A DNA stretch of 64,000 bases. Origin: Candidatus Omnitrophota bacterium (lineage in GTDB: Bacteria > Omnitrophota > Gorgyraeia > Aquiviventales > Aquiviventaceae). A model generated the notes under the pieces. That model ran no database searches. It saw only the letters and a program-made list of their open reading frames with translations, and was not told the origin of the DNA. Location of the stretch: positions 54,332-118,331 of the forward strand of contig JACPSR010000142.1 of NCBI GenBank assembly GCA_016193175.1. Direction: 5' to 3'. This document shows, one piece after another, positions 2,163-56,780 of the stretch; within the stretch, counting starts at the first letter, position 1, and every line of letters begins with the position of its first letter. The position numbers and the translations under genes were made by a program.

Positions 2163-3139
2163 CGCCGGCCCTGATCTCCATCATCATCCCGGCGCGCAAC
2201 GAAGAAGGCAACATCCCTCGCCTGGAGCAGGAAGTGCTGGCCGTCGTGGAGGCCTTGCCGGATGAGTTTGAGTTCATCGTCGTGGATAACGACAGCACGG
2301 ACCGCACGGGGGAGCTAGTCAAAGCCATCTGCGCCCGCGATCCGCGCTGGAAATATCTGCGGTTGAGCCGCAACTTCACGGTGGAGATGTCGATGACCGC
2401 CGGCTTGCGCGCGGCGCGCGGTGAGGCCATGATCGTCCTGTATTCCGACCTCCAGGACCCTCCGGCGGTGATCCCTCGATTCATTGCGAAGTGGCGCGAG
2501 GGGTATGACGTGGTGTACGGGGTGCGGACGGCCAGGCCGGGAGAACCGGTCTGGAGAAACCTGGCGGTCCATTGGGTGTATCGCGTGATCGCCTGGTCAT
2601 CCGACGTGCCGATCCCGCCGGATGCGGGCGATTTTCGTCTGATCAGCCGGCAGGTCCGCGACGCCCTTGAGCGGTGCGGGGAGTACAACCGCTACCTGCG
2701 GGGGCTGATTGCCTGGCTGGGGTTTCGGCAGGTCGGCATCCCGTATGAGCGGCGGGCGAGAACCGCGGGGAGGAGCCAAGCCCCGTTTTGGCATCTCGTG
2801 TTCTTCGCCTTCAACGCCATCACGAGCTTTTCCCTCAAGCCGCTGCGGCTCTTTACGTTTCTCGGGTTGGCCCTGTTATTGCTGTCCGCCTTGGCGCTGC
2901 CGGTCTACGTCATCCTGGCCATTGTGGGATCGCCCCCGCCCGGGATCACGACCATCATCACCCTCCTCTTTGTGGCGATCGGGTTGAACAGCCTGGGGAT
3001 CGGCATCTTGGGAGAGTACCTCGGCCGGACCTACGCTGAGGTGAAGCGCCGGCCGCTCTATGTCATTCAAGAAACCGTCAACCTTCCAGCGGATGCGACA
3101 GGTCCTGTAGCGCTTCACCCGGTGTTGGAAGAGCGATGA
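2159..3139 (+). CDS. Family 2 glycosyltransferase, polyprenyl-phosphate sugar synthase type (DPM1/GtrB/CsbB/ArnC-like)
   Basis: SIIIPARNEEGNI, VVDNDSTDRT and DLQDPP motifs, plus two C-terminal TM helices. ATGA overlap with both neighbours. Confidence 0.8.
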   Translation: MTPALISIIIPARNEEGNIPRLEQEVLAVVEALPDEFEFIVVDNDSTDRTGELVKAICARDPRWKYLRLSRNFTVEMSMTAGLRAARGEAMIVLYSDLQDPPAVIPRFIAKWREGYDVVYGVRTARPGEPVWRNLAVHWVYRVIAWSSDVPIPPDAGDFRLISRQVRDALERCGEYNRYLRGLIAWLGFRQVGIPYERRARTAGRSQAPFWHLVFFAFNAITSFSLKPLRLFTFLGLALLLLSALALPVYVILAIVGSPPPGITTIITLLFVAIGLNSLGIGILGEYLGRTYAEVKRRPLYVIQETVNLPADATGPVALHPVLEER

Positions 3140-5520
3140 CCGCGAAGAAGCCGGTGAAAACGTTGAACATCGAGTTTCTCGTGCCGCTGATGGTCTTGCT
3201 GGTCTTCAATGTCTCCTACTGTCTTAGCACCTTCATTCCGATTCACGACACCATGTTCAACGCCCAGGCCTTCCACGTGTTCTATCGCGAGTGGTTCTTT
3301 CATGGCGACCTGGCGCACTGGATTCCGTACGGGACATACGGCTGGACAAGCACGATGGAGCAACTGGCGTTCCTCTCGCCCATGAGCTACGTGGTGGCGT
3401 TGGCGGGCCGGCTGTTGCGCGTGACAGATGCTCTCCTCCTGTTCAAGGGTTCCGTGATCCTTGAGCAGCTCGTCCTGCTCCTCGGGATGTATCTGTTGTC
3501 TCGTCAGCTCTTCTCGAGGAGGAGCACGGTCCTCCTGGTCTGTCTCGGGGCGGTTGGCAGCACGGTCTGGTACGCTCAATACCATTTCAATTTTCGGATC
3601 TTCTATATGTTCCCGTTAGTTGTCCACCTCCTCATCCGCTTCTTTGAGACCCACCAGTCCGCGTGGTTGTGGGTCGCGGGCATCACGACAGTGGCCTGGG
3701 CGCTCGGCAACGTGCCGTACTTTGTGGCGCCATGGCTGTTGACGCTGTCGATCATCGTGCTGGTCCTCTTCTCGGCTGACCGCAAGAGCTGGCGCGCTCT
3801 GCGTGCGCGGTCGCGGGGCAACGTCCTCACGTTGACGCTCTTCACGGTCGCGGTGGCGGTCTATCTGTATCAGGTCGCCAAGGCAGCCGACTTCACGTTT
3901 CTGTCAGCCGGGAGGGATGCGACGACCGGAGCCGTGGGCATCCAGCCCTTCCTGTACCATGGTGGCCGCGCGGATCCTGGCGCGGTCCTGAAAAGCTTGG
4001 TGTTCGGATGGCCTTCGCATTTGCCGTGGGGCTCCACGCGAGATAACAGCATCTACGTCGGGCTGCTGTGCGTGGCCTGTTTTCTCTGGGCCGTCCTGCG
4101 AGTTCGTACGACGCGGTTTCTGGCATTGGCGGGCGCGCTCGCTGCCCTGGTCTGGCTCTCGTTTGGCGGGTTCTTCGCCACGGTCGCCTATTACGTGGTT
4201 CCGACGATGGATCGTTACCGACACGTTGGGCTGGTGTATGGGCTGGCAAAAATATTGTTCCTCCTGTGCGCGGGCTTCGGATGGGAGCACTTTTGGTCCG
4301 CTCGCAGTCGGGTCCGCACCGTCCTGGCGATGCTCATCGTCATGGGTGTGCTGGTGGACGCGTTGCGCGTCGTCTTTCCGTTTGATTTCTATCCATTGAC
4401 GCAACATGGGTGGGCGCGTCTTCGCGAGTTGCTGCAAGCCGGGGGACAGCTCGCGAACGAGGAGGTGTGGCCAACGATCTTTCTCTGGCGGGTGGGTCTC
4501 TACGTTCTCCTGATCGGACTGGGGAGCCTCATCATGCGTGTGGTGATCACGCTGCTGGGGAGGGCCCGTACGCGCCTGGTCGTCCCAACCCATGTGCATG
4601 GGGTCGCCCTGCGGACCGCGTTGGTCCTCGGCTTGGTGTTGGATCTGGTCTCCTACCAGGCGGTGGTCTATGCCGAGGCGCCCAAACTGTCTCCATCCTA
4701 CGTGGCGTATCTTGATGCGATGACGGTGGCCAACTGGCAATTCCAGGATCAGCGAACGACCAAGCCCGCTGGGGTCCGGGAGCAACAGGCGATGGATCTG
4801 ATTACCCGCCCGGGCGCCATGGCCTCCTATGCCTTGGCATACAGTTTCGCGCAGTTCGATCCGTGCGCAACGGCGTTCAGGGGGGACTGGTGGTCGGCAG
4901 GGGTTGTCACGCTGCTGCGAGCCACCAGCGAGGGCGAGTGGTGGGATGCCAAGGGCGAGGTGGTAGCACGCCTCGTGGGTTGCAACTCGCCAAAACTGCG
5001 CCTGGTGCCCCATGCGGTGTCCGCCGAGACCATTGAAGAAGCCATCGCGCTGATCCGCAGGACAACGGATCTCGAGCACGTAGTAGTGCTGCGAGGGGTG
5101 ACGCTGCCAGCCCAACCAGATCATGTTCGTGATGTTGGCACGGAGGCGGCTGGAACCGTGCGGGTGACGCGCTTTACGGCCAATGACTTGATTGTGGAAG
5201 CCGATGTGGCCTCGAACGTCGGCGCATGGCTCGTGTATGCGGATGCGTTTCATCCGGGTTGGATGGTTACTGTGAACGGACGACGCGTGCCCATCGCAGA
5301 GGCGTACCTCGCATTCAAAGCCGTCTGGTTGAATGATGGCCACTCGATCGTGCACTTCACGTTTCGTCACGGGGTGAGCTGGTTCCTCAGTTACATGATC
5401 GCGTTCTTTGGAACGTGCGCAGGCCTCGTCTTGCTGGCTGCCTGTTGGTGGGCCGCATGGTCCTCGCCACGACTGGTTCAGAACAGGATGACGCATGCGA
5501 GTGCTGGTCACAGGGCATAA
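3136..5520 (+). CDS. YfhO-like polytopic membrane protein (GT-C type glycosyltransferase candidate)
   Basis: 794 aa with many hydrophobic helices. The C-terminal soluble domain ends in YADAFHPGWMVTVNGRRVPIAEAYLAFKAVWLNDGHSIVHFTF, the pattern I associate with the YfhO family. Follows a polyprenyl-P-sugar GT2. Confidence 0.65.
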   Translation: MTAKKPVKTLNIEFLVPLMVLLVFNVSYCLSTFIPIHDTMFNAQAFHVFYREWFFHGDLAHWIPYGTYGWTSTMEQLAFLSPMSYVVALAGRLLRVTDALLLFKGSVILEQLVLLLGMYLLSRQLFSRRSTVLLVCLGAVGSTVWYAQYHFNFRIFYMFPLVVHLLIRFFETHQSAWLWVAGITTVAWALGNVPYFVAPWLLTLSIIVLVLFSADRKSWRALRARSRGNVLTLTLFTVAVAVYLYQVAKAADFTFLSAGRDATTGAVGIQPFLYHGGRADPGAVLKSLVFGWPSHLPWGSTRDNSIYVGLLCVACFLWAVLRVRTTRFLALAGALAALVWLSFGGFFATVAYYVVPTMDRYRHVGLVYGLAKILFLLCAGFGWEHFWSARSRVRTVLAMLIVMGVLVDALRVVFPFDFYPLTQHGWARLRELLQAGGQLANEEVWPTIFLWRVGLYVLLIGLGSLIMRVVITLLGRARTRLVVPTHVHGVALRTALVLGLVLDLVSYQAVVYAEAPKLSPSYVAYLDAMTVANWQFQDQRTTKPAGVREQQAMDLITRPGAMASYALAYSFAQFDPCATAFRGDWWSAGVVTLLRATSEGEWWDAKGEVVARLVGCNSPKLRLVPHAVSAETIEEAIALIRRTTDLEHVVVLRGVTLPAQPDHVRDVGTEAAGTVRVTRFTANDLIVEADVASNVGAWLVYADAFHPGWMVTVNGRRVPIAEAYLAFKAVWLNDGHSIVHFTFRHGVSWFLSYMIAFFGTCAGLVLLAACWWAAWSSPRLVQNRMTHASAGHRA

Positions 5521-13837: not shown

Positions 13838-13843
13838 CCACGC

Positions 13844-23280: not shown

Positions 23281-23325
23281 TCGTCGCAGTCGATCGCGCG
23301 GATCGATGAGGATGGAGACGCCAGT

Positions 23326-23413
23326 GCCAACCGTGTCATCCTTCGTTGAGACAGCGAGGCGGCTGTGCGCAGCCTATGAGGCGATGTACCTCGACGGTGG
23401 CGTGGCATGGTGA
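23326..23413 (+). pseudogene. C-terminal remnant of a paralog of CDS 18982-20076
   Basis: ARRLCAAYEAMYLDGGVAW* versus LDRLCADYEATYLDGGVRW*. DNA similarity runs from 23363, matching 20026 onward. It lies in otherwise non-coding 23281-23406. Confidence 0.55.
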
Positions 23414-26002: not shown

Positions 26003-27039
26003 TCGCCGAGCGATCCGTCGGTCCGGGGCAGCCGTGCCTCATTATCGCGGAGGCCGGGGTCAATCATAACGGCGACATGGCGCTCGCGCGGCGCTTGATC
26101 GACGCCGCCGCCGAGGCCGGGGCTGACGCGGTCAAGTTCCAGACCTTCAAGGCCGAACGGTTAGCGAGCGCATCGGCTCCCAAGGCCGCTTATCAATGGC
26201 AGGCCACCGATCGCTGGGAATCGCAGCGCGAGATGCTGCGTCGATTGGAGCTGTCGGAATCGGCTCATCGAGGCCTCATGGTCTCTTGCCAGCAGCGCGG
26301 CATCCTGTTTCTCTCATCTGCTTTTGAGGAGGAAAGCGCCGATCTGTTGGAGCGGTTGGGCGTGTGCGCCTTCAAGATTCCATCAGGAGAACTGACGAAT
26401 CTGCGGTTCTTGGAGCATGTCGCTCAGAAGGGCAAGCCGATGATTGTGTCGACCGGGATGTCCACCCTCTCGGAGGTTGAGCAGGCGGTGCAGATCATTC
26501 GACGAGCCAGGAACGATCAACTCATCCTGCTCCATTGTGTCAGCGACTACCCGGCCAATCCATCGGATGCAAATCTGCGCGCCATGCATACGATGGCTGA
26601 GGCGTTCAACGTGCCAGTGGGGTATTCCGATCACACCCCGGGTGTCGATGTCGCCTTAGCCGCCGTGGCCTTAGGGGCGTGTGTCATCGAAAAGCATTTC
26701 ACGTTGGATCGGGCGCTTCCGGGACCGGATCATCGCGCTTCACTCGAGCCCAATGAGTTGCGTCAACTGGTTGAAGGTATTCGGAGGGTCGAAGCTGCGC
26801 TGGGACATGGGCGCAAGGAACCGGCTCAGCGCGAAGCCCCGACCGCCGCGGTGGCGCGCAAAAGTCTCGTGGCCGCCAGGGATATTCCGGCTGGGAGTCT
26901 CCTGACCGAAACACTCATTGTGGCCAAGCGTCCCGGGACCGGTTTACCGCCAGCCCTCTTGCCTCAACTGGTTGGACGAAAGACCGTCCACGATATTCCT
27001 GCCGGCGCGCTCTTGACCCTCGACATGGTGGCTTCATGA
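25987..27039 (+). CDS. neuB: N-acetylneuraminate/legionaminate synthase family (NeuB) with C-terminal SAF domain
   Basis: PCLIIAEAGVNHNGDMALARRLIDAAAEAGADAVKFQTF and GYSDHTPG. An alternative start at 25996 gives an ATGGTGA overlap. Confidence 0.9.
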   Translation: MDGMVIAERSVGPGQPCLIIAEAGVNHNGDMALARRLIDAAAEAGADAVKFQTFKAERLASASAPKAAYQWQATDRWESQREMLRRLELSESAHRGLMVSCQQRGILFLSSAFEEESADLLERLGVCAFKIPSGELTNLRFLEHVAQKGKPMIVSTGMSTLSEVEQAVQIIRRARNDQLILLHCVSDYPANPSDANLRAMHTMAEAFNVPVGYSDHTPGVDVALAAVALGACVIEKHFTLDRALPGPDHRASLEPNELRQLVEGIRRVEAALGHGRKEPAQREAPTAAVARKSLVAARDIPAGSLLTETLIVAKRPGTGLPPALLPQLVGRKTVHDIPAGALLTLDMVAS

Positions 27040-32025: not shown

Positions 32026-32027
32026 TC
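32011..32027 (+). repeat. Solo right arm of the junction element
   Basis: CAGGGCGTGGGATGATC is identical to the right arms of copies 1, 3 and 4. It carries the stop of 30502-32025 and the ATG (32022) of the hisF paralog. No convincing left arm is present. Confidence 0.7.
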
Positions 32028-32900
32028 GTGCGGCTGATTCCGCGGCTGGACATCAAGGGACCGAATTTGGTGAAGGGGATCCATCTCGAGGGTCTGCGCG
32101 TGCTCGGGAAACCCGAACGATTTGCGCGGATCTACTACGAGCAGGGGGCCGATGAGCTGTTGTACATGGATGTGGTGGCCAGTCTCTATGGCCGTAAGAG
32201 CCTTTTAGACATCGTGACGAGAACCGCCAAGGAGCTCTTTATCCCCCTGACAGTTGGCGGGGGGTTGCGGACGTTAGAGGATATCACACAGGCGTTATGG
32301 GCTGGAGCGGACAAAGTCGCCATCAACACCGCGGCCATCCAGCAGCCCCAACTGATTCATGACGCCGCGCGGAAGTTCGGCTCTTCCACGATCGTCGTCT
32401 CCATTGAGGCGATGCACAAGCCTGATGGACGATACGAGGCCTATACCGATAACGGGCGCCAACGCACAGGCGTCGATGCCGTGGAGTGGGCCCAGCGGGC
32501 AGCGGAGCTGGGTGCCGGCGAGCTGTTGGTGACATCGATCAACCGTGAGGGAACCGGCACCGGGTTTGATGTCGAGCTGACCAGACAGATTGCTGAACGC
32601 GTTCCGATTCCTGTGATCGCATGCGGAGGGGCTGGGATGGTCAGGCACGTCTACGAGGTGATCACGCAGGGCAAGGCCGATGCCGTCTGTCTGGCGTCGA
32701 TCCTGCACTACGGTGTCGTTCGGAACCTCCCACCCAGTGAACGCGACGTTGCTGAAGAAGGCAATACCGCGTATCTCAGAAGCGGCAAGGGCTTTTCGCG
32801 AGTCGAGGAGGCGACCTTGCCGGACATCAAGGCCTACCTCCTCGAGCGAAGGATCTTCTGCCGCGGGGCTCTGCGGGAGTCCGCCAATGCGATCGTGTAA
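32022..32900 (+). CDS. hisF: Imidazole glycerol phosphate synthase cyclase subunit paralog (HisF/WbuZ-like)
   Basis: RLIPRLDIKGPNLVKGIHLEGLRVLGKP and GADELLYMDV. Located in a glycan cluster next to hisH- and wbuX-like genes. Confidence 0.85.
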   Translation: MIVRLIPRLDIKGPNLVKGIHLEGLRVLGKPERFARIYYEQGADELLYMDVVASLYGRKSLLDIVTRTAKELFIPLTVGGGLRTLEDITQALWAGADKVAINTAAIQQPQLIHDAARKFGSSTIVVSIEAMHKPDGRYEAYTDNGRQRTGVDAVEWAQRAAELGAGELLVTSINREGTGTGFDVELTRQIAERVPIPVIACGGAGMVRHVYEVITQGKADAVCLASILHYGVVRNLPPSERDVAEEGNTAYLRSGKGFSRVEEATLPDIKAYLLERRIFCRGALRESANAIV

Positions 32901-33579
32901 GAAGCGGGTGGCGATTGTCGATTACGGGATGGGCAATCTGTTCAGCGTCCAGCAGGCCTGCGAGCACGTGGGGCTGGAGGCGGCGATCACCTCATCCGCA
33001 CAGGCCATCCTGTCGGCGGACGGGGTGATTCTCCCCGGCGTCGGGGCCTTCGGGGACGCCATGGCGACGCTCGCGCAGCGAGATCTGATCGGCGTCCTGA
33101 GGGACGTGGCCGACTCGGACAAACCGTTCCTCGGGATCTGTTTAGGCATGCAGTTGCTCATGACGGAAAGCCATGAGTTTGGGCGGCACGAGGGGTTGAA
33201 GATCTTGGAGGGTGACGTCGTGCGCTTGGCCGAGACGCGTCCCGAAGATGGTCGGATCGTGAAGGTCCCTCAAGTCGGGTGGAATCGAATCCGGCAGATC
33301 AACGGGCGACCGTGGGACGATTCCTGGTTGGCAGGGCTGGCGGATGGCACGTTTATGTACTTCGTCCACTCCTTCTATGTCCAACCGGCCGATCCGAGCC
33401 TGATCTGCGCCACGACCCGGTATGGGCAGACGACGTTTTGCTCAAGCCTTCGGCGTGGGAACGTGTTAGCCTGTCAGTTTCACCCGGAGCGCAGCGGCCC
33501 TCAGGGGCTGCAGGTGTATGCGAATTTCGGCGCGGCGCTGCAGCGGCCGGTTGCGGAATCGAGGGTCTCGACTCGATGA
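32887..33579 (+). CDS. hisH: Glutamine amidotransferase subunit paralog (HisH/WbuY-like)
   Basis: VAIVDYGMGNLFSVQQA, catalytic GICLGMQLL and FHPERS. Confidence 0.85.
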   Translation: MRSCKKRVAIVDYGMGNLFSVQQACEHVGLEAAITSSAQAILSADGVILPGVGAFGDAMATLAQRDLIGVLRDVADSDKPFLGICLGMQLLMTESHEFGRHEGLKILEGDVVRLAETRPEDGRIVKVPQVGWNRIRQINGRPWDDSWLAGLADGTFMYFVHSFYVQPADPSLICATTRYGQTTFCSSLRRGNVLACQFHPERSGPQGLQVYANFGAALQRPVAESRVSTR

Positions 33580-46284: not shown

Positions 46285-46903
46285 AGGGCAGTCGTTCCTC
46301 CAGCAATATCGCGACGAGGCCGCCCAGATTGCCCAGGCGCTGGACGTCGAGACGATGGATCACATGGTGGGGCGGCTTGTCCGGTTGCGCGATGAAGGCG
46401 GTCGTCTCTTCCTCTGCGGCGTGGGCGGGAGTGCCGGAAACTGCAGCCATGCGGTGAACGATTTTCGCAAGCTCGCCGGGATCGAAGCGTACAGTCCGGT
46501 GGATAATGTCTCAGAGCTGACAGCGCGAACCAACGACGAGGGCTGGGAGACGGTGTTTGCGGCATGGCTGAAGGTGAGCCGGGCCAGTTCGCGTGACGTG
46601 CTGTTCATCCTGTCAGTCGGTGGGGGCAGCCGAGAGCGCAACATCAGCGCCAACCTGGTGGCCGCTATTGATGAGGCCAAGGCCCGGGGCATGGATGTGT
46701 TGGGGGTCGTGGGACGGGACGGCGGGTACACGAAGCGACGAGGCGATCTGGTGCTGGTCATTCCGACGGTCAACGAGCAATCGGTCACGCCGCACACCGA
46801 GGCGTTCCAGGCCGTCGTGTGGCATGCCCTCGTGTCCGATCCACGCCTGATGGTGTGTGGCAACAAGTGGGAGACGCAGACCCTCCATGAGTCGAAGGTG
46901 TAA
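46274..46903 (+). CDS. gmhA: SIS-domain sedoheptulose 7-phosphate isomerase
   Basis: RLFLCGVGGSAGNCSHAVNDFRK and VLFILSVGGGS are typical of phosphoheptose isomerase. Start chosen inside the longer ORF at 46094. Confidence 0.8.
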   Translation: MLARGQSFLQQYRDEAAQIAQALDVETMDHMVGRLVRLRDEGGRLFLCGVGGSAGNCSHAVNDFRKLAGIEAYSPVDNVSELTARTNDEGWETVFAAWLKVSRASSRDVLFILSVGGGSRERNISANLVAAIDEAKARGMDVLGVVGRDGGYTKRRGDLVLVIPTVNEQSVTPHTEAFQAVVWHALVSDPRLMVCGNKWETQTLHESKV

Positions 46904-47996
46904 CCGAACCGCACGACGCCACCAACCCATCGGCAAGACGAAAGCCGTCGTCTTCACGACGCTCGCGGTGTTCCTCTCGGCAGCTCTCACGGCTGGTGCC
47001 GTGATCGGCGTGGATCTCTCTCTGCACAAGCGATTCGAAACCTCAGCGGGGCTGAACGTCCGGGGCTACCGCGGTCCGCTGGTCGGAAGGAAGCAACCCG
47101 GAGAGCGGCGGATCGTCGTGCTGGGCGGCAGCGCCGCCTTCGGCTATGGTGTGCGGGTGCATGAAGCGTTCCCCGCGGCCCTTGAGCGACAGCTCAACGA
47201 CGGCCAACGACGGGGGGATCGGGGAGCTGTCGGTGTGGTGAACCTCGCGTACAACCGGGAAGGGGCCTACGCGTTACTCTCTACACTCAAAGACTATGAG
47301 GCGCTGGATTACGACATGGCGCTTTTCTACACGGGATATAACGACTTGCCAGAAGAGCCAAACCTCCAGGTCTATCGACACGAATCGCTCGCCTTCACGT
47401 TGACCGGCTACCACCCAATTCTCCCCCTGGTCTTGAAAGAGAAGTGGATGGCCCTGCGTCACGGAGGCAATCTGGAAGCGGCGTATCGGGAAGCCGGTCA
47501 GCGGGTGCCACCCCACCCCGTCCTCTTCCGGCCGGGGGGTGGGCCGCCGGGCAATGCCGAGATGCGCAAGACGGCTGCCGATATCCGGCAAGCCCTGGAA
47601 CGTCGTCTCGGCCGCCTGACCTACCCGGACACATTGGTTGCCGCGGCGGGCGTCGAGTGCGGTGGTCGCTGGGCGCACTATTGCCAGGGCGTGGCGGTTG
47701 CGGTTGAGTACGCGTTTGAACGCGGGAAGCGGGTCCTCGTCGTGACCGAGCCCTATCTCTCGGACGACCATGTGGCGCAGCAGGCCGCGCTGGCGAACAT
47801 GCTGAAGGCGCGCTTCGGAAACGAACAGCGAGTGCAATATGTGAACCTCGGCCAGGGCGTGGTGGACCTCGACGATTCGAATCTGTGTTTCGATGGGATG
47901 CATCTGACGGCAGCGGGCAACGAGCGGATCGCCGAACACCTCGCCGGTCCCATCCTGGAGATCTTGGATCGGGCCGCAGCGACTGCGGGTTCATGA
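46887..47996 (+). CDS. Membrane-anchored SGNH-like hydrolase/acyltransferase family protein
   Basis: N-terminal TM helix (VVFTTLAVFLSAALTAGAVIG), VVLGGSAAFGYG block and distal DGMH block. Confidence 0.5.
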   Translation: MSRRCNRTARRHQPIGKTKAVVFTTLAVFLSAALTAGAVIGVDLSLHKRFETSAGLNVRGYRGPLVGRKQPGERRIVVLGGSAAFGYGVRVHEAFPAALERQLNDGQRRGDRGAVGVVNLAYNREGAYALLSTLKDYEALDYDMALFYTGYNDLPEEPNLQVYRHESLAFTLTGYHPILPLVLKEKWMALRHGGNLEAAYREAGQRVPPHPVLFRPGGGPPGNAEMRKTAADIRQALERRLGRLTYPDTLVAAAGVECGGRWAHYCQGVAVAVEYAFERGKRVLVVTEPYLSDDHVAQQAALANMLKARFGNEQRVQYVNLGQGVVDLDDSNLCFDGMHLTAAGNERIAEHLAGPILEILDRAAATAGS

Positions 47997-48154
47997 TGGG
48001 AAAGGCCAGAATCCTGTTTGAGTTTTGGGAGTTTCTGAGAACACAGAAGAAGTGTTGGCTCCTTCCGATCATCGTGGTGCTGTGCCTGCTGGGGATCTTG
48101 GTCGCCTTTTCTCAAAGCAGCGTGGTGGCGCCATTCATCTACACCCTGTTTTAG
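47993..48154 (+). CDS. Small membrane protein, DUF5989-like (carbamoyltransferase-associated)
   Basis: 53 aa, MMGKARILFEFWEFLRTQKKCWLLPIIVVLCLLGILV. I recall this type next to SxtJ and carbamoyltransferase genes. ATGA junction upstream. Confidence 0.6.
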   Translation: MMGKARILFEFWEFLRTQKKCWLLPIIVVLCLLGILVAFSQSSVVAPFIYTLF

Positions 48155-48550
48155 ATGGCGGACACGACGCGCGCACAGGAGCGGTCGTTCGGACTATCGG
48201 TCGGTCTCATCTTCGGACTGCTGGCGGCCTTCGCCCTGTGGCGGGGGCGGCCGGCGGTGGGATGGGTGTGCGGACTGATCGCCGTTGCGCTCGTGGTGCC
48301 TGCCCTCACCAGGCCGGCGTGGCTTCGCATCCCCAGCCGCCTGTGGTGGCGGCTGGCCCGTGCGCTGGGATGGGTCAACACGCGGGTGCTGTTGTCGGTG
48401 TTCTTCTTCTTCGTTGTGACGCCGACGGGACTGGTCATGCGGTTATGCGGCTGGGATCCCCTGCACCGGCGACGCGCCAGCCGCGGCAGCGGCTGGGTGC
48501 CGCATTCGGAGCGGTATCGAGACCCCAAGCACTACGAACGGATGTACTGA
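48155..48550 (+). CDS. SxtJ-family membrane protein
   Basis: 131 aa. ERSFGLSVGLIFGLLAAFALWRG and TRVLLSVFFFFVVTPTGLVMR match my recollection of SxtJ-like proteins. Confidence 0.6.
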   Translation: MADTTRAQERSFGLSVGLIFGLLAAFALWRGRPAVGWVCGLIAVALVVPALTRPAWLRIPSRLWWRLARALGWVNTRVLLSVFFFFVVTPTGLVMRLCGWDPLHRRRASRGSGWVPHSERYRDPKHYERMY

Positions 48551-48586
48551 ACCTCTTCATGAGAAGCGAACCATGAGGTGCGAGCG

Positions 48587-49591
48587 ATGAATGCTTCGCC
48601 AGAAGTGTCGATGATCTTCCCACTGCGTGATGAAGCCGGCAACCTCAAGGTCTTATACGAACGGGTCCGGGAAGCCTTTCGTCAGGCGGGCGTGCCGTCG
48701 TACGAACTGGTGTTTGTCGATGATGGAAGTCGAGACGAGTCGCTGACCATCATTAAGACCTTGCGTGCAGACGATCCCTGTGTCCGGTACCTGTCTCTGA
48801 GCCGAAGCTTCGGGCACCAGGCGGCGCTGTTTGCTGGACTGTGCTGGGCCCGTGGTCGAGCCGTGATAATGATGGACGCCGATTTACAGCATCCGCCAGA
48901 GCTCATCCCTGAGATGATCCGACTCTGGCGCGAGGGCTATGAGATCGTCTACACGACGAAGCGCAACGCCCAGATAGCGTGGTTCTGGCGGTGGCAAATG
49001 CGGTTGGTCTACCCAGTGCTTTCGAAGCTCGCTGGTCTGCGGCTCTCCTTCGGGCAGTCCGACTTTAGGCTACTGGACAGCAAGGTCGCCGAGGTCCTGC
49101 GCTCCATGCCGGAATATCGGAAGTTTCTCCGCGGATTGGTCAGCTGGGTCGGATTCAAGCAAATCGGGATCGCCTACACGGTTCCGAAGAGGTGCGAGGG
49201 TCGTTCGAAGTATTCCTACCGGACGCTCGCGCGACTCGCCCTGGACGGCCTCTTCGCGTTTTCAGCGTTCCCCTTACGCATGCTATTGTGGTTTGGAATC
49301 ACGCTCTCGGCAATACTTGCGCCGTACATGGTCTGGGTCATGTCCCTGGGTGTGAGGAGGATGTTGGGGGAAGTCGTCGACTATCCGACAGGGTGGGTGA
49401 CGGTCGTGGTCGCGGTGTTGTTGATAGGGAGTGTCCAGCTCGTTGCCATCGGGTTGATGGGAGAATACATTGCACGGATTTTTGAGCAGACGCAAGGCCG
49501 CCCGCCCTTCATCGTTCGCGAGTATTCAGATCAGGAACAACGGGCCGTGCCGGTTCCTGAGAGATGGGCGGAGCCTGTTGGACTTGGGTGA
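48587..49591 (+). CDS. Family 2 glycosyltransferase, polyprenyl-phosphate sugar synthase type (paralog of 2159-3139)
   Basis: SMIFPLRDEAGNL, FVDDGSRDES, DADLQHPP and two C-terminal TM helices. GTG at 48578 is an alternative start. Confidence 0.8.
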   Translation: MNASPEVSMIFPLRDEAGNLKVLYERVREAFRQAGVPSYELVFVDDGSRDESLTIIKTLRADDPCVRYLSLSRSFGHQAALFAGLCWARGRAVIMMDADLQHPPELIPEMIRLWREGYEIVYTTKRNAQIAWFWRWQMRLVYPVLSKLAGLRLSFGQSDFRLLDSKVAEVLRSMPEYRKFLRGLVSWVGFKQIGIAYTVPKRCEGRSKYSYRTLARLALDGLFAFSAFPLRMLLWFGITLSAILAPYMVWVMSLGVRRMLGEVVDYPTGWVTVVVAVLLIGSVQLVAIGLMGEYIARIFEQTQGRPPFIVREYSDQEQRAVPVPERWAEPVGLG

Positions 49592-49601
49592 TGTCTCGCC
49601 G

Positions 49602-50480
49602 ATGAGAGCGAGCGTGGTCATTAACGCTGACGACTTTGGGATCCATCGCGCGGTGAATCGAGCCATCCAACGAGCGCATCATGAGGGCGTGGTGACCAGC
49701 GCCTCTCTGATGACGTGCGGGGTGGCGTTCGATGATGCGCTGGAACGCCTCAAGGTGAGCCCTGCGCTCGGGGTCGGGATCCATTTGACGTTAGTGGAAG
49801 AACGTCCGGTGCTGCCGTCCTCACACGTGCCGTCATTAGTGGGTCCTGATGGCCGGATGCCGAGATCCTATTGGCACTTTGTGAACGGATGGCTCAGGGG
49901 TCGCATTCAGCCATGCGATGTCCAGCGCGAATTGGAAGCCCAAGTGGACCGACTGCTTGCCAACGGGATTCAGCCCACCCATGCGGATAGCCATCAACAC
50001 ATCCACGTGGTGCCTGGAGTGTGGTCCATCGTGGCGCGGATTGCCCACGCCTACCGGATTCCGTTTCTCCGAACGCCGTGCTTCACGTCGTTGTGGGAGC
50101 ACATCGACAGCTGGTCAGAGCCGTTTCTAAGGGGCGGGATGAATCTGCTAAGGGCCATGCGTTGTCTGTGGTGGCCATCCAAGATTGCCCGGGCCGATTA
50201 CCTTGATGGACTGAGCCAGAGCGGCCGCATGACAGCCGAAGCGTTGCTGAGGATTCTGACGTCCCTGCGCCCTGGGCTTACCGAAATCATGGTGCATCCC
50301 GGAGAGGAGAACGAGACGTTACGACGCCTGTACTCCTGTGGACCCTGGCAGGGGTTCGATTGGGAAGCTGAGCTGGCGGCGTTGACCGATGCGCGGGTCC
50401 AGGCCGTCTGTCGTCAGGAGACGTTCTCGTTGACTCACTTCGGGGCTGTGTGGGCATCCATCTCAGAGGAGCGGCGATGA
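49602..50480 (+). CDS. YdjC/ChbG/HpnK-family carbohydrate deacetylase
   Basis: VVINADDFGIHRAVNRAIQRAHHEGVVTSASLM and HADSHQHIH metal-site motifs. Confidence 0.8.
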   Translation: MRASVVINADDFGIHRAVNRAIQRAHHEGVVTSASLMTCGVAFDDALERLKVSPALGVGIHLTLVEERPVLPSSHVPSLVGPDGRMPRSYWHFVNGWLRGRIQPCDVQRELEAQVDRLLANGIQPTHADSHQHIHVVPGVWSIVARIAHAYRIPFLRTPCFTSLWEHIDSWSEPFLRGGMNLLRAMRCLWWPSKIARADYLDGLSQSGRMTAEALLRILTSLRPGLTEIMVHPGEENETLRRLYSCGPWQGFDWEAELAALTDARVQAVCRQETFSLTHFGAVWASISEERR

Positions 50481-52480
50481 GGTCGGACGAACGTCGGAGC
50501 GACACCAGCGCGCCTGCCATGACGACGCGGATTTTGGGAATTTCCGCCTACTATCACGATGCGGCCGCGTGCCTGCTGGTCGACGGGGAGATTGTCGCTG
50601 CCGCGCAGGAGGAGCGCTTTACGCGCAAGAAGCACGATGAGCGGTTTCCGTCGAACGCGATCAGGTACTGTCTTCAGGCAGGCAGAATTCCCATCGAGGC
50701 GGTCGATCTCGTCGGCTTCTATGAGAAGCCCATTGTGAAATTCGAGCGGCTCATTGAAACCTACTTGGCCGACGCCCCGCGGGGTCTGCGCTCGTTTTTG
50801 ATGGCGATGTCAACGTGGTTGGGGGAAAAACTGTGGTTGGCGGACACGATCCAACGGGAGCTGGGCTGGAGGCGTCCCGTGTTGTTTGGTGATCACCACG
50901 AATCCCATGCGGCCTCGGCCTTTTACCCCTCACCGTTTGAGGAGGCGGCGGTCCTCACGATGGATGCCGTTGGGGAATGGGCCACGGCCTCGTATGGCTA
51001 CGGGAAGGGCAACGAGCTGGTCCTGTTGAAGGAGATGCGATTCCCCCACTCCTTGGGATTGTTGTACTCGGCGTTCACCTATTTCTGCGGGTTCAAGGTC
51101 AACTCGGGCGAATACAAGTTGATGGGTCTGGCCCCCTACGGCGAGCCTCGGTATGTCGAGGCCATTCGGGATCACCTCGTGGACATTCGCGAGGACGGCA
51201 GTCTGTGGCTCAACCTTGAGTCCTTCAACTACTGCACCGGTCTGACGATGACCTCCCCCGCCTTTGCGCGGCTCTTCGGGGGACCTCCGCGTAAGCCTGA
51301 CGACGCCATCACGCAGCGAGAGATGGATCTCGCTCGCTCGATTCAGGAGATTACCGAGGAGATCATGCTCCGTATGGCCTGCCATGTCTATCGAGAAACA
51401 CGGCTGCCCTATCTGTGCCTCGCGGGCGGGGTGGCGTTGAACTGTGTCGGCAATGGCCGGATCTTGCGGGAGGGTCCGTTCAAGGAGCTTTGGGTGCAGC
51501 CGGCTGCGGGTGATGCCGGGGGCGCGTTGGGTGTGGCCATGGCGCTGTGGCATCGGTATCTGGGGAAGCCTCGGCTCAGCCCGGAGCGCGAGGGCACGTG
51601 GCATCCTGCCATGAAGGGGAAGGGGCGCGGGGCGCCGGTTGCTCTCGCCGTCGGTGCGGGTCTGCAGCGTGGCGAGGGTGCCACGTTGGCGTCGGCGCAT
51701 GAATCCAACGACCTGCCCGTGTACACGGATCGGATGAAGAGTGCGCTGTTGGGCCCGGCGTTCTCCGAGGAGGAGATTGGTGCGTGGCTGGCAAAGCAAG
51801 GCTACCCTGCGCAGCGCCTCGAGCGCGAGGCGCTGGTTGAGCGCGTGGCGGAGCTGTTGGCTAAGGGTGAGGTCATTGGGCTGTTCCAGTCTCGCATGGA
51901 GTTTGGGCCACGGGCGCTCGGCGCGCGATCCATCATCGGGGATGCCCGTTCGCCCCAGATGCAGTCGCTCATGAACCTGAAGATCAAATTCCGGGAATCC
52001 TTCCGGCCATTTGCGCCCTCCGTCCTGCGGGAACATGTCGGGGACTGGTTTGCATTTGACGGGGAGAGTCCGTACATGCTGCTCGTGTGTGATGTCGCGG
52101 TCCATCGGCGGCTGCCGCTGGCGCCAGCCGATGCGGCGCGCCTAGGCCTGGAGAAACTCCAAGTTCCCCGCTCGGAGATTCCGGCGGTGACCCATGTCGA
52201 TCACTCGGCGAGGATCCAGACCGTGCGGCGGAAGCACAACCCGCTGTTCTACGACATCCTGCGCGCCTTCTATGAGCGGACCGGCTGCCCCGTCATCATC
52301 AATACCTCGTTCAACGTCCGTGGGGAGCCGATCGTCTGCACGCCGGATGACGCCTATCGATGCTTCATGCGCACCCAGATTGACGCGCTCGTGTTGGAGT
52401 GTTTTGTCCTCGAGAAGGGTGAGCAGGTCCCGACCGGGGAGCCACAGGAAGTCTGGCAATGGGAGATCCCGCCCGATTGA
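50477..52480 (+). CDS. NodU/CmcH-family carbamoyltransferase
   Basis: ILGISAYYHDAAACLLVDGEIVAAAQEERFTRKKHD N-terminus and a C-terminal carbamoyltransferase domain (NTSFNVRGEPIVCTP). The 50477 start gives an ATGA overlap; 50519 is an alternative. Confidence 0.85.
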   Translation: MRSDERRSDTSAPAMTTRILGISAYYHDAAACLLVDGEIVAAAQEERFTRKKHDERFPSNAIRYCLQAGRIPIEAVDLVGFYEKPIVKFERLIETYLADAPRGLRSFLMAMSTWLGEKLWLADTIQRELGWRRPVLFGDHHESHAASAFYPSPFEEAAVLTMDAVGEWATASYGYGKGNELVLLKEMRFPHSLGLLYSAFTYFCGFKVNSGEYKLMGLAPYGEPRYVEAIRDHLVDIREDGSLWLNLESFNYCTGLTMTSPAFARLFGGPPRKPDDAITQREMDLARSIQEITEEIMLRMACHVYRETRLPYLCLAGGVALNCVGNGRILREGPFKELWVQPAAGDAGGALGVAMALWHRYLGKPRLSPEREGTWHPAMKGKGRGAPVALAVGAGLQRGEGATLASAHESNDLPVYTDRMKSALLGPAFSEEEIGAWLAKQGYPAQRLEREALVERVAELLAKGEVIGLFQSRMEFGPRALGARSIIGDARSPQMQSLMNLKIKFRESFRPFAPSVLREHVGDWFAFDGESPYMLLVCDVAVHRRLPLAPADAARLGLEKLQVPRSEIPAVTHVDHSARIQTVRRKHNPLFYDILRAFYERTGCPVIINTSFNVRGEPIVCTPDDAYRCFMRTQIDALVLECFVLEKGEQVPTGEPQEVWQWEIPPD

Positions 52481-52529: not shown

Positions 52530-53288
52530 ATGAGAACCTTAACCGGGATCTTTTTGGACACCGGAAGTCTGGAAGAGATTCGGAAGTACCATGCGTTGGG
52601 GATCATCCGGGGTGTGACGACCAACCCGACGATCCTGGCGAAAGAGGGACTGAGGGGAGGATGGTTGGGGATTGAGGAGCGCTGCCGGCAGATCGCGCAG
52701 CTCGTCAGCCCGCTGCCCGTCTCGGTGGAAGTCACCACGAACGACCCAGAAGGGATGCTCGAGCAGGCCCAGAGGTTTGTCAGCTGGGCGCCCAACATCA
52801 ACGTCAAGATTCCGATTCACGACGTGGAGGGCGGCACGGAGAACTTGCGGCTCGTGCATGAGCTGGAGACGCAACACGACATTCGCGTCAACGTGACCGC
52901 CATGATGAGCGCGCAGCAGTGTCTGCTGGCGGCGATGGCGGGTGCGACCTATGTCTCCTTGTTCGGGGGGCGGGTCAACAACATGGGCTACAACGCGTGC
53001 CAGGAGATCCGGCGCCTCCGGGGTTTGTTGGATGCCTTTGGCAGCCCCGCCAAGATGATCGTCGGATCCACCCGCGAGGTCCTGAACATCGTGGAGTGGT
53101 TTGAAGCGGGCGCGGATATTGTTACGACGGTCCCGCCGTTGCTGGAAGGGATGCTTGTGCATCCCTACAGCAAGGAGACGGTCCAGCAGTTCCTCCGGGA
53201 CGCCGCGAAGCTGGAGCAGGTTGACGAGCGTCGACAGCCGGAGCGTATCTCGAAACCGGGTCCTCGTGTTGCGCGCGTGTTGGCCTGA
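52530..53288 (+). CDS. Transaldolase family protein (fructose-6-phosphate aldolase/TalC-like)
   Basis: IFLDTGSLEEIRKYHALGIIRGVTTNPTIL and Schiff-base lysine context NINVKIP. GAAAGGTGGA precedes the ATG, RBS-like. Confidence 0.85.
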   Translation: MRTLTGIFLDTGSLEEIRKYHALGIIRGVTTNPTILAKEGLRGGWLGIEERCRQIAQLVSPLPVSVEVTTNDPEGMLEQAQRFVSWAPNINVKIPIHDVEGGTENLRLVHELETQHDIRVNVTAMMSAQQCLLAAMAGATYVSLFGGRVNNMGYNACQEIRRLRGLLDAFGSPAKMIVGSTREVLNIVEWFEAGADIVTTVPPLLEGMLVHPYSKETVQQFLRDAAKLEQVDERRQPERISKPGPRVARVLA

Positions 53289-54243: not shown

Positions 54244-55941
54244 ATGTGGCTCTTCATGATCCTCTGCAGCCTCCTGTATACGGTGACGCGCTTCACCGGG
54301 CTGGAATACCTGTCGCTGTACTCTGGCGGTGCGTTTCAGGTCCTGCATCCGGAGAGCTTTCCTGTCGATCGCTACATGCCGCCGTTTCGGGCCACGCTGC
54401 TCTCGCTCTATTATGTCGTCGTGCGGTTGGTGGGCGACCTCTGGCTGGACGATCGCTTTACGATTGTGGTGTACGGCGGGCTCGTCCTCATGGCCGTCGT
54501 GGTCTTGGACAAGACGGCACGGCTCTTCGGCGCAGACCGTCCCGCAGCACGTGTTGCGATGCTCTCCCTGATGCTGACGATTGGCAACGGCTTTAAACGC
54601 ACGCAGTTTGTGAGCGCGTTGGAGTTTAACCCCACGACCATGGCAGGACCCGTGGCGTACTGGTTGTTCTACCTGGTGCTTGCCGGAAAGCGCCCAGCCC
54701 TCATTTTCGCTGTCATGGCCCTTCTGGCGTCCATCTCCATCAAGAACGCATGGTTGCCAATCCTGATTGGCCTGGCGATCCTGTTCAAGGAACGCTTGAC
54801 ACCCCGCGGCAAATGGCGTGTGGGGTTGAGCGTCCTGGGACTGATCGCGGCGGCCCTTGGGGTGTATTACGCGGTGGTCAGGCTGCAGAATCCAAACCAG
54901 GTGGCCCTGTTCGACTTCATCCTGGAGGAGATGGAACGAGAAGAAGCCAACCCCTTCTGGGACGCCTGGTGGAGTAACCTGGCGTTTCTGGTGGTGTGCG
55001 CCGGAGCCTGGTGGGTCAGGCTTCCTTCCGTCGTGCTTGAACAACGGGTGAAGATGACCGCTGTCGTTGGGGCTACCGTCTGGTTGCTTGGTGGGGTGTA
55101 CCTGTCCTACACGCCGGACATGCTCAAGATCCCCTACGTGGTCCCCTTTGATGTCGAGAGGGCCCTGGTGTGGCCGCAGTATGTCCTCCTCGTCGCGATC
55201 GCGGCCTCGGTGTTGAGGCGTCTCGACTCGGCCTCCTCATGGAGAGGTGTCTGGGTTTGCATCGCGGTGCTGTTGGCGATCTATCTGACGCCATTCCACC
55301 TGAAGCGGGCCAGCACGGTCGTCGTCCTCTTGGGGCTGATGTGGCTGTGGCGGTACGTGTCTGAACGGCGGCGGGCGATCGATCCGTCCTGGCGGCTGCG
55401 GATCGTCGCTGGCGCGCTCTGCGCCACGACGTTGTCCACATTGGTCTCGTGGACGGTCCATCGGATGCCAGCCCTTCAGTTTTTGGCTGAGCATGGCATC
55501 ATGGGGGACAACCCGGGAGCCAAGTGGGTGGGAATCAACGAGTACATCCGGGAAAGGACACCCCCCAACTCGCTGGTCCTCGCCTTCTCGATGGGGGACT
55601 ATCCATGGCGGCGTCCTCAACGACTCACGCTCGAGACGTCCTTGCGCACGCGGACCGGTCGGTCTATGCCATTTGGATCTCCCGTGGTGTTCGTGTTCGA
55701 TTACCTCTCCATTGGCTGGTCCGTCCACGAACGTGGGCCACATCATGACCGGCTCATCGACGCATGGGAACGGCACGACGTGACTGGCGTCACGGCGAGC
55801 CTGAACGCCATTGGAGCGCCTGACTATCTGGTGGTCCCGACGACGAAGGCACAGTGGCTTCAAGACCGCTCGAGCTTTCCCTACCGGATCGAGACGGTCA
55901 TTCGCGAATTCACGATCCTGCGAAAGGCCATCTCTGCGTGA
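54244..55941 (+). CDS. Polytopic membrane protein with C-terminal soluble domain (GT-C or polymerase candidate)
   Basis: 565 aa, about 10 or more hydrophobic helices followed by a ~150-aa hydrophilic C-terminus. Confidence 0.55.
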   Translation: MWLFMILCSLLYTVTRFTGLEYLSLYSGGAFQVLHPESFPVDRYMPPFRATLLSLYYVVVRLVGDLWLDDRFTIVVYGGLVLMAVVVLDKTARLFGADRPAARVAMLSLMLTIGNGFKRTQFVSALEFNPTTMAGPVAYWLFYLVLAGKRPALIFAVMALLASISIKNAWLPILIGLAILFKERLTPRGKWRVGLSVLGLIAAALGVYYAVVRLQNPNQVALFDFILEEMEREEANPFWDAWWSNLAFLVVCAGAWWVRLPSVVLEQRVKMTAVVGATVWLLGGVYLSYTPDMLKIPYVVPFDVERALVWPQYVLLVAIAASVLRRLDSASSWRGVWVCIAVLLAIYLTPFHLKRASTVVVLLGLMWLWRYVSERRRAIDPSWRLRIVAGALCATTLSTLVSWTVHRMPALQFLAEHGIMGDNPGAKWVGINEYIRERTPPNSLVLAFSMGDYPWRRPQRLTLETSLRTRTGRSMPFGSPVVFVFDYLSIGWSVHERGPHHDRLIDAWERHDVTGVTASLNAIGAPDYLVVPTTKAQWLQDRSSFPYRIETVIREFTILRKAISA

Positions 55942-56780
55942 TGGTGAACGAGCGTGTTCAGGTGAAACGAGAAAAGCGGATGGATGTGGCAGATCCCCTG
56001 GCTGTGGCGGAACGGTTGCGTCGCCGCTTGAAGCAGCGGGCGCTCACCTTCGGGGCGTGGATCTCGATCGGGCATCCGGAGATCGCCAGCATCTTCGCCG
56101 GCGCGCGGGGGGACTTCGTGGGGTTCGACCTGGAGCATACGACGATCGATTTTGCGACAGCCCAGCAGATCATCCGGGCCTGCCACGAGTTTGGCCGCGC
56201 GTGCCTGCCACGCATTGGCCCGGGGAATCTGGAGCAGCTCAGTCGCCTGCTCGATGCCGGGGCCGACGGCGTGGTCGTCCCGCAGGTGCAGGGTCGTGAT
56301 GACATCGAGCGCGTCGTCGATGCGCTGCGGTACCCGCCGGCGGGCCGGCGTAGCTTCGGGGTCGCCGCGGCCCATCAGTACGGGCGCGCGTTTGACGCGT
56401 ATGTGCGGTCGGCGAACGCCTCCCTGTCGCTCATCGTGCAGGTCGAAACGATTGGGGCGGTGGAGCAGGTCAAGCCGATTGTGGCGCATCCGGATGTGGA
56501 TGGCGTGATGGTCGGACCCTATGACCTTTCTGGGTCCCTTGGCATTCCAGGGAAGCTGTCCGATCCCCGCGTCACCGAGGCAGCCGGGCGCGTGGTGACG
56601 GCGTGCGCCTCGGCCGGCAAGAGTTGCGGCACGCACCTCGTGCGCCCAAGCCTTGAGGGGATCCGGCGGCATCTCGCCGACGGGTTCACGTTTCTCGTCC
56701 TGGGCTCCGATGTCTTCAACCTGGCGCAGCGAAGCGAAGAGCTCGATGCGATGATCGAGGCGTGCCATGCCGACCGTTGA
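55941..56780 (+). CDS. HpcH/HpaI-family class II (pyruvate-dependent) aldolase
   Basis: TFGAWISIGHPEIASIFAGARGDFVGFDLEHT and VQVETIGAVEQV blocks are typical of 2-keto-3-deoxy-acid aldolases. Confidence 0.8.
   Translation: MVNERVQVKREKRMDVADPLAVAERLRRRLKQRALTFGAWISIGHPEIASIFAGARGDFVGFDLEHTTIDFATAQQIIRACHEFGRACLPRIGPGNLEQLSRLLDAGADGVVVPQVQGRDDIERVVDALRYPPAGRRSFGVAAAHQYGRAFDAYVRSANASLSLIVQVETIGAVEQVKPIVAHPDVDGVMVGPYDLSGSLGIPGKLSDPRVTEAAGRVVTACASAGKSCGTHLVRPSLEGIRRHLADGFTFLVLGSDVFNLAQRSEELDAMIEACHADR

Follow-up and report, generated by a model that had tools for sequence, protein, structure and literature searches.

A Predicted Lipid-Linked Amino-Sugar Gene Pair Nested within a Carbamoylation Gene Set in an Omnitrophota Surface-Glycan Island

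Introduction

Two kinds of described gene system bear on a run of five genes for a DUF5989 protein, an SxtJ-family protein, a family 2 glycosyltransferase (GT2), a YdjC-family deacetylase and a carbamoyltransferase. This run lies in a stretch of 64,000 nucleotides from Candidatus Omnitrophota bacterium (assembly GCA_016193175.1, contig JACPSR010000142.1, positions 54,332 to 118,331), which we analyzed as a whole and call the window. The first kind of system attaches amino sugars by way of a lipid carrier. In the FlmF2/NaxD/FlmK system of Francisella and the LgmA/LgmC/LgmB system of Bordetella, as in the window, a YdjC-family deacetylase comes after a GT2 of the ArnC/GtrB type, with a GT-C-fold transferase nearby. 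NaxD is a YdjC-superfamily enzyme that deacetylates undecaprenyl-phosphate-linked N-acetylgalactosamine (PMC11279074), and lgmA, lgmB and lgmC are required for the presence of glucosamine on lipid A in Bordetella (PMC4993483). The ArnC/ArnD/ArnT system for undecaprenyl-phosphate-linked 4-deoxy-4-formamido-L-arabinose follows a similar logic, with a GT2 acting on polyprenyl phosphate, de-N-acylation and transfer by a GT-C enzyme.

The second kind of system is known from saxitoxin biosynthesis. The sxt cluster contains the consecutive genes sxtI for a carbamoyltransferase, sxtJ (405 bp), sxtK (165 bp, between sxtJ and sxtL) and sxtL for a GDSL lipase (PMC2679770, PMC2684587). SxtI, SxtJ and SxtK are taken to act together or as a complex, without experimental proof (PMC2679770, PMC12300590). 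The biosynthetic gene cluster for suomilide also groups sxtJ, sxtK and sxtL (PMC10157211). In the following we describe how genes of both kinds probably came to be interleaved in one Omnitrophota lineage, and why we think that they probably serve two separate modifications.

Results

Two Gene Sets That Are Separate Elsewhere

The initial annotation of this DNA had read the five genes as a single pathway leading to a carbamoylated hexosamine. The distribution of these genes in other genomes argues against that proposal. We aligned 20 SxtJ homologues and analyzed the 80 best of at least 579 SxtJ-encoding loci from a scan of species-representative genomes, together with 84 loci gathered around YdjC homologues. 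None of the 80 SxtJ loci contains a YdjC gene, and none of the 84 YdjC loci contains the carbamoyltransferase, SxtJ, DUF5989 or the GDSL/SGNH gene that precedes the run in the window. A GtrB-like GT2 is encoded in 3 of the 80 SxtJ loci, 28–29% identical and kilobases away.

The closest syntenic islands point in the same direction, as they keep the carbamoylation genes in the same slot without the GT2–YdjC pair. In loci L011 and L016 a HAD gene is followed at some distance by genes for GFO, a methyltransferase, radical SAM, SIS, GDSL, SxtJ, DUF5989, the carbamoyltransferase, a transaldolase, another methyltransferase, a 566-residue protein, HpcH and two SDR proteins. The flanking proteins are 81–89% identical to those of the window, and the carbamoyltransferase is 88% identical. 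L017 has the carbamoylation genes in the same slot with GDSL between SxtJ and DUF5989, and in L180 the slot between the SxtJ/DUF5989 genes and the carbamoyltransferase is occupied by a gene for a methyltransferase–DUF5989 fusion. In neither L016 nor L017 is a remnant of GT2 or YdjC detectable even at E = 10; this view of the sister genomes extends 10 kb to either side, and a GT2–YdjC pair may sit elsewhere in them. Directly after its intact carbamoyltransferase gene, L017 contains an open reading frame (13783–14643) in which an N-terminal GT2 fragment is joined to a duplicated piece of the carbamoyltransferase C-terminus; this has the look of a scar left by rearrangement at a variable site. 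Finally, the more distant islands L182 and L183 have the core genes (GFO, radical SAM, methyltransferase, SIS, HpcH, the GT-C protein, HAD, two SDRs, a CMP-transferase and a 2-hydroxyacid dehydrogenase) without either module.

The slot between SxtJ/DUF5989 and the carbamoyltransferase is thus a variable site. Since three syntenic Omnitrophota islands keep the carbamoylation module without the pair, parsimony makes it most likely that GT2–YdjC was gained within this module in the lineage of the window only, together with a swap in the order of SxtJ and DUF5989. Because neither module accompanies the core genes in L182 and L183, the history is a nested one: a core pathway took up a carbamoylation module, which in one lineage took up the amino-sugar pair. 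The flanks of GT2–YdjC contain no direct or inverted repeats beyond short matches at chance level, and promoter- or terminator-like sites around the pair are not above shuffled expectation. The GC content at third codon positions is 0.70–0.71 for GT2 and YdjC, slightly below the 0.74–0.83 of their neighbors. The arrangement is not an assembly chimera, because the same five-gene order recurs on 10 independently assembled contigs, nine from Logan runs and one from GCA_016187645.1 ("Candidatus Omnitrophica bacterium"). A "Candidatus Omnitrophica bacterium" metagenome-assembled genome encodes a protein identical to the SxtJ of the window.

The Carbamoylation Module

All five genes listed in the initial annotation are present on the plus strand and score far above the Pfam thresholds (Table 1). 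The upstream boundary drawn there was too narrow, because it omitted the GDSL/SGNH gene of the carbamoyltransferase module. With this gene as its first member (46887–47996), the carbamoylation unit is a set of four genes.

Table 1. Features of the window discussed in the text, with coordinates and supporting matches.
Feature	Position	Strand	Basis
Second GtrB-like GT2, 326 aa	2159..3139	+	Pfam GT2 95 bits; two C-terminal transmembrane segments
794-aa protein, ~11 transmembrane segments	3136..5520	+	YfhO 18.2 bits (cut-off 28.5), C-terminal 70 residues only
GDSL/SGNH hydrolase-like protein, membrane-anchored, SxtL-like	46887..47996	+	Pfam Lipase_GDSL_2 38.5 bits (cut-off 32.9)
DUF5989 protein, 53 aa, single transmembrane segment	47993..48154	+	Pfam PF19451 80.7 bits (cut-off 27), E 8e-23
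SxtJ-family membrane protein, 131 aa	48155..48550	+	Pfam PF19588 53.7 bits (cut-off 24.4), E 3.7e-14
GtrB/ArnC-type GT2	48587..49591 (alternative GTG start 48578)	+	Pfam Glycos_transf_2 90.6 bits (cut-off 23.3)
YdjC-family deacetylase	49602..50480	+	Pfam YdjC 230 bits (cut-off 29.7)
NodU/CmcH/TobZ-type carbamoyltransferase, SxtI-like, soluble	50477..52480	+	Carbam_trans_N 316 bits, Carbam_trans_C 239 bits
Transaldolase-like protein	52530..53288		
565-aa polytopic membrane protein, GT-C fold	54244..55941	+	AlphaFold2 model and Foldseek
HpcH aldolase	55962..56780		

The junctions of the run are operon-like. The stop codon of the GDSL gene and the start codon of DUF5989 overlap (ATGA), the ATG of SxtJ abuts the DUF5989 stop, 36 nt separate SxtJ from the GT2 start (27 nt from the alternative GTG), and 10 nt separate GT2 from YdjC. 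The likeliest start of the carbamoyltransferase overlaps the YdjC stop by 4 nt. Two reading frames extend upstream of the starts that we use: that of the GDSL/SGNH gene opens at 46857 with GTG, and gene calls on identical contigs start at 46887 to give 369 aa; that of YdjC reaches to 49470, and 49602 is both where the domain begins and where the gene is called on identical contigs.

The initial annotation had described SxtJ and DUF5989 as companions of carbamoyltransferases, and a co-occurrence count bears this out. We determined the gene content of the SxtJ loci by tblastn with the window proteins and regarded a locus as judgeable if at least 3 kb were available on both sides of SxtJ (n = 54). 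The carbamoyltransferase was found in 53 of these 54 loci and DUF5989 in 49. A homologue of the upstream GDSL/SGNH protein is encoded in 20 of the 54, directly adjacent in 11. The prevailing gene order is SxtJ–DUF5989–carbamoyltransferase (32 loci), followed by carbamoyltransferase–SxtJ–DUF5989 (14) and DUF5989–SxtJ–carbamoyltransferase (2). In the window DUF5989 adjoins SxtJ, and the carbamoyltransferase lies 1.9 kb downstream within the same operon-like run.

We encountered the set in Acidobacteriota, Omnitrophota, Nitrospirota, Cyanobacteriota, Methylomirabilota, Bacteroidota and Proteobacteria. Homologues of sugar-nucleotide or glycosyltransferase genes of the window occur in at least 21 of the 46 SxtJ loci of 15 kb or more, and all three SxtJ loci for which we read gene tables (L011, L012 and L014) are glycan loci. 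The four families (carbamoyltransferase, SxtJ, an SxtK-sized DUF5989 protein of about 53 aa and GDSL/SGNH) are probably those of sxtI, sxtJ, sxtK and sxtL. The saxitoxin cluster is an alkaloid cluster; in the window, and in most of the 80 SxtJ loci, the neighbors of the set are genes for sugar nucleotides and glycosyltransferases. In the window the set is also split by GT2–YdjC.

The carbamoyltransferase has no predicted transmembrane segment. Its best matches in the PDB are the O-carbamoyltransferases NovN (301 bits), GdmN and TobZ, and its sequence shows the HHESH and GPRALG motifs as well as both the Kae1-like N-terminal and the YrdC-like C-terminal domain. Enzymes of the TobZ/NovN-like family form carbamoyl-adenylate from carbamoyl phosphate and ATP and then O-carbamoylate a sugar hydroxyl; the characterized NodU/CmcH-family enzymes known to us are O-carbamoyltransferases. 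The window protein is a member of this family and not an orthologue of NodU (NCBIfam NF041651: 116 bits, cut-off 1000).

The match of the SxtJ protein spans positions 2–98 of the 99 positions of the model for PF19588, a Pfam family that takes its name from SxtJ. An AlphaFold2 model of the protein (pLDDT 82.6) shows helices at residues 2–29, 33–52 and 54–97 and a disordered tail, and gives no functional clue; the C-terminal tail is basic and conserved (…DPKHYERMY). DUF5989, with its one predicted transmembrane segment, is probably the equivalent of SxtK, as judged from size and position; our literature search returned no papers that mention DUF5989. A natural gene fusion suggests what this small protein may do. 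In L180 (8246–9424; also L181, 1515–2741) a complete DUF5989 module forms the C-terminal tail of a class-I methyltransferase, and the fusion gene has a separate DUF5989 gene on one side and the carbamoyltransferase gene on the other. The fused DUF5989 is 63% identical to that of the window, compared with 56% for the free copy of L180. This fusion suggests that DUF5989 may anchor tailoring enzymes of the cytoplasm to the membrane.

The GDSL/SGNH protein of the window and its homologues in the L016–L058 set retain an N-terminal Arg/Lys patch and a single transmembrane segment in 27 of 31 cases. Since these features are conserved, the SGNH domain is predicted to face outward, in an extracytoplasmic position. 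For SxtL, the saxitoxin homologue of this protein, a decarbamoylase function has been proposed solely from homology.

The GT2–YdjC Pair

The proposal that the GT2 acts on polyprenyl phosphate agrees with full-length alignments to enzymes of this type. The protein aligns to GtrB from Synechocystis (sll0501, PDB 5EKP), its best solved relative, with 234 bits over residues 2–312, and to structures of ArnC with 127 bits over residues 6–312. It carries the motif DADLQHPP (within MMDADLQHPP, with DAD as the DXD motif) and two C-terminal transmembrane segments, and so has the layout of GtrB/CsbB/GacI-type enzymes, a GT-A domain with a C-terminal transmembrane hairpin. By family, then, the enzyme is predicted to be a polyprenyl-phosphate glycosyltransferase and more specifically an (N-acetyl)hexosaminyltransferase. 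Orthology to ArnC (NF007986: 145 bits, equivalog cut-off 529) and to PgfS (NF047588: 249 bits, equivalog cut-off 500) was rejected.

The YdjC protein has neither a transmembrane segment nor a signal peptide by prediction. It keeps the motifs that are invariant in its clade, NADDFG, GIHLTL and HxDSHQH (D10–D11, H61 and H127–D129–H131). By analogy to NaxD and LgmC it is a putative deacetylase of polyprenyl-phosphate-linked N-acetylhexosamine. The NCBIfam model for ChbG (NF002559) aligns to the N-terminal half only and scores 137.7 bits against a cut-off of 227, and the protein was not assigned to ChbG.

Gene neighborhoods support the FlmF2/NaxD-type logic that had been suggested for the pair. 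Judged were 15 YdjC loci with at least 40% YdjC identity to the window protein and 53 with less than 40%. A full-length GtrB-like GT2 (38–56% identical) is present in 9 of the 15 closer loci, in 6 directly upstream of YdjC, and in 6 of the 53 more distant ones, so that the pair recurs in 15 loci altogether. GT2 and YdjC are each about 55% identical to their counterparts in the same three loci (L096, L099 and L101), as expected for a co-inherited pair. Genes for PMT_2 (GT-C) proteins stand beside the GT2–YdjC pair in L099, L103, L106, L161 and L179, and a sub-threshold PMT_2 match does so in L121.

In several relatives a third gene belongs to the group. A methyltransferase of about 250 aa is encoded directly after YdjC in L096 (8853–9608), L098 (8868–9623), L099 (8880–9644) and L106 (5406–6176). 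These methyltransferases, at 68–79% identity, are more conserved than YdjC itself; more distant copies follow YdjC in L097, L114 and L144. No orthologue of this methyltransferase was found in the window. The conservation suggests an ancestral GT2–YdjC–methyltransferase module, in which the amine exposed by deacetylation may have been N-methylated.

The pair differs in several respects from the systems that it resembles. It lies in a 64-kb polysaccharide or nonulosonic-acid island, not in a lipid A modification locus like those of Francisella and Bordetella; the nearby GT-C protein is not specific to the pair; and the related GT2–YdjC modules have a conserved methyltransferase that the known systems lack. 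Compared with the Arn system, the deacylase is of the YdjC type instead of the NodB/CE4 type of ArnD, and no equivalents of ArnA, ArnB, ArnE or ArnF were recognized in the window.

As a separate observation, the surroundings of the YdjC genes of L097 and L104 (8001–8855, products 54% identical to the window protein) form a cluster that corresponds by homology to genes 10138–24423 of the window. This cluster contains a C-methyltransferase, GFO-type oxidoreductases, a weak or different GT2, a DHQ-synthase-like gene and a radical SAM/SPASM gene. Such a context could point to a pathway for a cyclitol or an unusual sugar, where the role of YdjC may be a different one.

Candidate GT-C Transferases

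Two membrane proteins had been named as possible acceptor transferases of the GT-C type, and one of them has the expected fold by prediction. The AlphaFold2 model of the 565-residue protein, computed from an alignment of 29 sequences, has a pLDDT of 90.6. Its 11 best Foldseek matches in the PDB are all GT-C enzymes, with ArnT first (5EZM/5F15: E 1e-4, probability 1.0, TM-score 0.42–0.47), then ALG12, STT3 and EmbC. The family has an invariant W67-L-D-D-R71 motif, whose Asp pair D69–D70 agrees with the acidic motif of GT-C enzymes in the first extracytoplasmic loop, and the protein matches no Pfam or NCBIfam model. From its predicted structure, this protein could plausibly use a polyprenyl-phosphate-sugar donor.

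The other candidate, the 794-residue protein, is at most a putative GT-C enzyme. Beyond its faint YfhO match it has no NCBIfam match, and hhalign gives a probability of 2% for relationship to the 565-residue family. The end of the gene for a second GT2 overlaps the start of its gene, and this second GT2 is a paralogue of the GT2 of the pair, 33% identical over 307 aa (BLASTP). Together these two genes (2159–5520) would form a CsbB/YfhO-style pair, and the 794-residue protein likely has its own donor synthase.

The Island

The window is a 64-kb glycan island with a GC content of about 62%, in which essentially all genes have sugar-nucleotide, glycosyltransferase or glycan-tailoring functions. 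About 58 genes are predicted (1–64000), all on the plus strand and many with overlapping stops and starts. GC skew is positive across the window, and cumulative skew climbs monotonically. Recognized functions include NeuB, a UDP-GlcNAc 2-epimerase/PglD fusion, two CMP-transferases, a DegT aminotransferase, a GmhA-like SIS and a GmhB-like HAD protein, transaldolase-like and HpcH aldolases, two B12-radical SAM enzymes and many methyltransferases.

A nonulosonic-acid block at 24420–33579 encodes a CMP-transferase, an SDR, NeuB and a UDP-GlcNAc 2-epimerase fused to a PglD-like acetyltransferase. The same block holds a B12-radical SAM enzyme, a 507-residue membrane protein and a HisF/HisH-like pair, which could be a candidate amidotransferase for an acetamidino group. 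Two separate pairs of genes for split thiamine-diphosphate enzymes (N- and C-terminal halves of E1/transketolase) lie at 5–2162 and 13985–15762. With the transaldolase-like and HpcH aldolase genes, they suggest that the carbon chain of a sugar is rearranged or extended.

Discussion

With somewhat better than even confidence, we read the cassette as a lineage-specific nesting of two independent glycan-tailoring modules in a surface-glycan island. In the carbamoylation module, the soluble carbamoyltransferase would make carbamoyl-adenylate and O-carbamoylate a sugar hydroxyl of the island glycan. This enzyme may be held in place at the membrane by SxtJ and DUF5989 and would have an SGNH domain that faces outward as its companion. 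For the second module, the analogy to FlmF2/NaxD/FlmK and LgmA/LgmC/LgmB suggests that GT2 may load N-acetylhexosamine onto polyprenyl phosphate at the cytoplasmic face and that YdjC may deacetylate the product to polyprenyl-phosphate-hexosamine. After flipping, a GT-C transferase would attach the amino sugar to an extracytoplasmic glycan; the ArnT-like 565-residue protein is the nearest candidate for this step. The two modules most likely decorate the glycan or glycans of the island independently, and their adjacency is most likely explained by co-transcription and not by a shared intermediate.

Several observations weigh against this interpretation. Nesting with a 4-nt overlap between YdjC and the carbamoyltransferase would also be expected of a shared pathway. 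The carbamoyltransferase occupies the slot after YdjC that is held elsewhere by the conserved methyltransferase, which could hint at a deacetylated-sugar substrate. The family of the 565-residue GT-C protein is conserved in islands that lack GT2–YdjC (L011/L016, L182 and L183), so this protein is not a dedicated partner of the pair; in L182 and L183 it travels with SIS, HpcH, SDR and CMP-transferase genes without either module. A search of the window for flippases of the GtrA or ArnE/F type gave none, which also sets the locus apart from GtrB systems; of the small multi-transmembrane genes, SxtJ is the only genuine one, the other match being a minus-strand open reading frame inside a coding region. 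The close YdjC homologues of L097 and L104 are in clusters without a GtrB-like GT2. The neighborhood counts cover 8–10 kb on either side of each relative, and the clade closest to our YdjC comprises 15 loci.

The single pathway, in which polyprenyl-phosphate-N-acetylhexosamine would be deacetylated, carbamoylated on a hydroxyl or on the freed amine by a membrane-held carbamoyltransferase and then delivered by a GT-C enzyme, accounts for the contiguity and translational coupling of the five genes. It would also give meaning to the position of the carbamoyltransferase directly after YdjC, to the ArnT-like protein encoded 3.7 kb downstream and to the fact that the partners of the carbamoyltransferase are membrane proteins, as would fit a lipid-linked substrate. 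Nevertheless we consider this pathway unlikely, given that the two gene sets do not co-occur in any of the 80 SxtJ and 84 YdjC loci and that the nearest relatives have a carbamoyltransferase of 82–88% identity in the same slot without GT2–YdjC, so that the substrate of this enzyme appears to be independent of the pair. Moreover, we know of no precedent for N-carbamoylation of an amino sugar by an enzyme of the NodU/CmcH family. The gene pair could also have other tasks. YdjC could act on a soluble or nucleotide-linked N-acetyl sugar or on a cyclitol-type intermediate, and GT2 could separately make a polyprenyl-phosphate-hexose for side-branching in the manner of GtrB. ChbG acts on soluble chitobiose and its model matches our protein at 138 bits, and the 54% identical YdjC proteins of L097 and L104 are encoded among homologues of window genes 10138–24423 with no GtrB-like GT2 nearby. 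This division of labor seems improbable in view of the enrichment of GtrB-like GT2 near the closest YdjC homologues (9/15 vs 6/53), the parallel identities of the two proteins to the same three loci and the recurrent PMT_2 neighbors.

A hopanoid pathway was suggested by the best NCBIfam match of the YdjC protein, which is HpnK (TIGR03473, 200.3 bits), and by a B12-binding radical SAM gene 3.3 kb upstream. In this pathway GT2 would act as HpnI and add GlcNAc to a membrane lipid such as bacteriohopanetetrol, an HpnK-type YdjC would deacetylate the product and the radical SAM enzyme HpnJ would follow. However, the HpnK score does not reach its cut-off (232.6), the HpnJ model gives the radical SAM protein 71 bits against a cut-off of 578, the GT2 is of the GtrB/ArnC type and not HpnI, and neither a squalene-hopene cyclase nor any other hpn gene was recognized among the approximately 58 genes of the window. 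With the equivalog thresholds missed and the hpn context missing, the hopanoid reading is effectively refuted. A more speculative extension concerns the carbamoylation genes themselves, which could form a membrane-spanning machine that captured a polyprenyl-phosphate-hexosamine module in this lineage. Activation of the carbamoyl group would fall to the cytoplasmic carbamoyltransferase, and its tethering or relay to the small membrane proteins; the outward SGNH domain would place or edit the group on the glycan at or after export. This idea follows the AT3-SGNH (OafA/OatA) and AlgI/J/F/X O-acetylation systems, where a cytoplasmic donor step, membrane components and an outward SGNH domain are combined; the window proteins have no sequence relationship to those systems, and SxtJ has three helices only. 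We give this machine little credence. If it existed, its action on a lipid-linked amino-sugar substrate would produce a carbamoyl-hexosamine decoration that has so far not been described.

Conclusion

Each of the two modules is of a known type: the pair follows the logic of FlmF2/NaxD, LgmA/LgmC and ArnC/ArnD, and the carbamoylation genes correspond to the SxtI/J/K/L set. Their nesting was seen in one uncultured Omnitrophota lineage only and looks like ordinary mosaicism in a large surface-glycan island. The result refines an annotation and does not define a new system; it illustrates that adjacency in glycan islands can reflect the recent nesting of separable modules. For the saxitoxin field, SxtJ and SxtK (probably a DUF5989 protein), which have lacked an explanation ever since the saxitoxin genes were first reported, can be placed in a carbamoylation set of four genes. 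Because this set is common in glycan loci, includes an outward-facing SGNH domain by prediction and has a relative in which DUF5989 is fused to a methyltransferase, our observations suggest that SxtJ and SxtK may act as membrane tethers and that the saxitoxin pathway may have borrowed a glycan-tailoring module.

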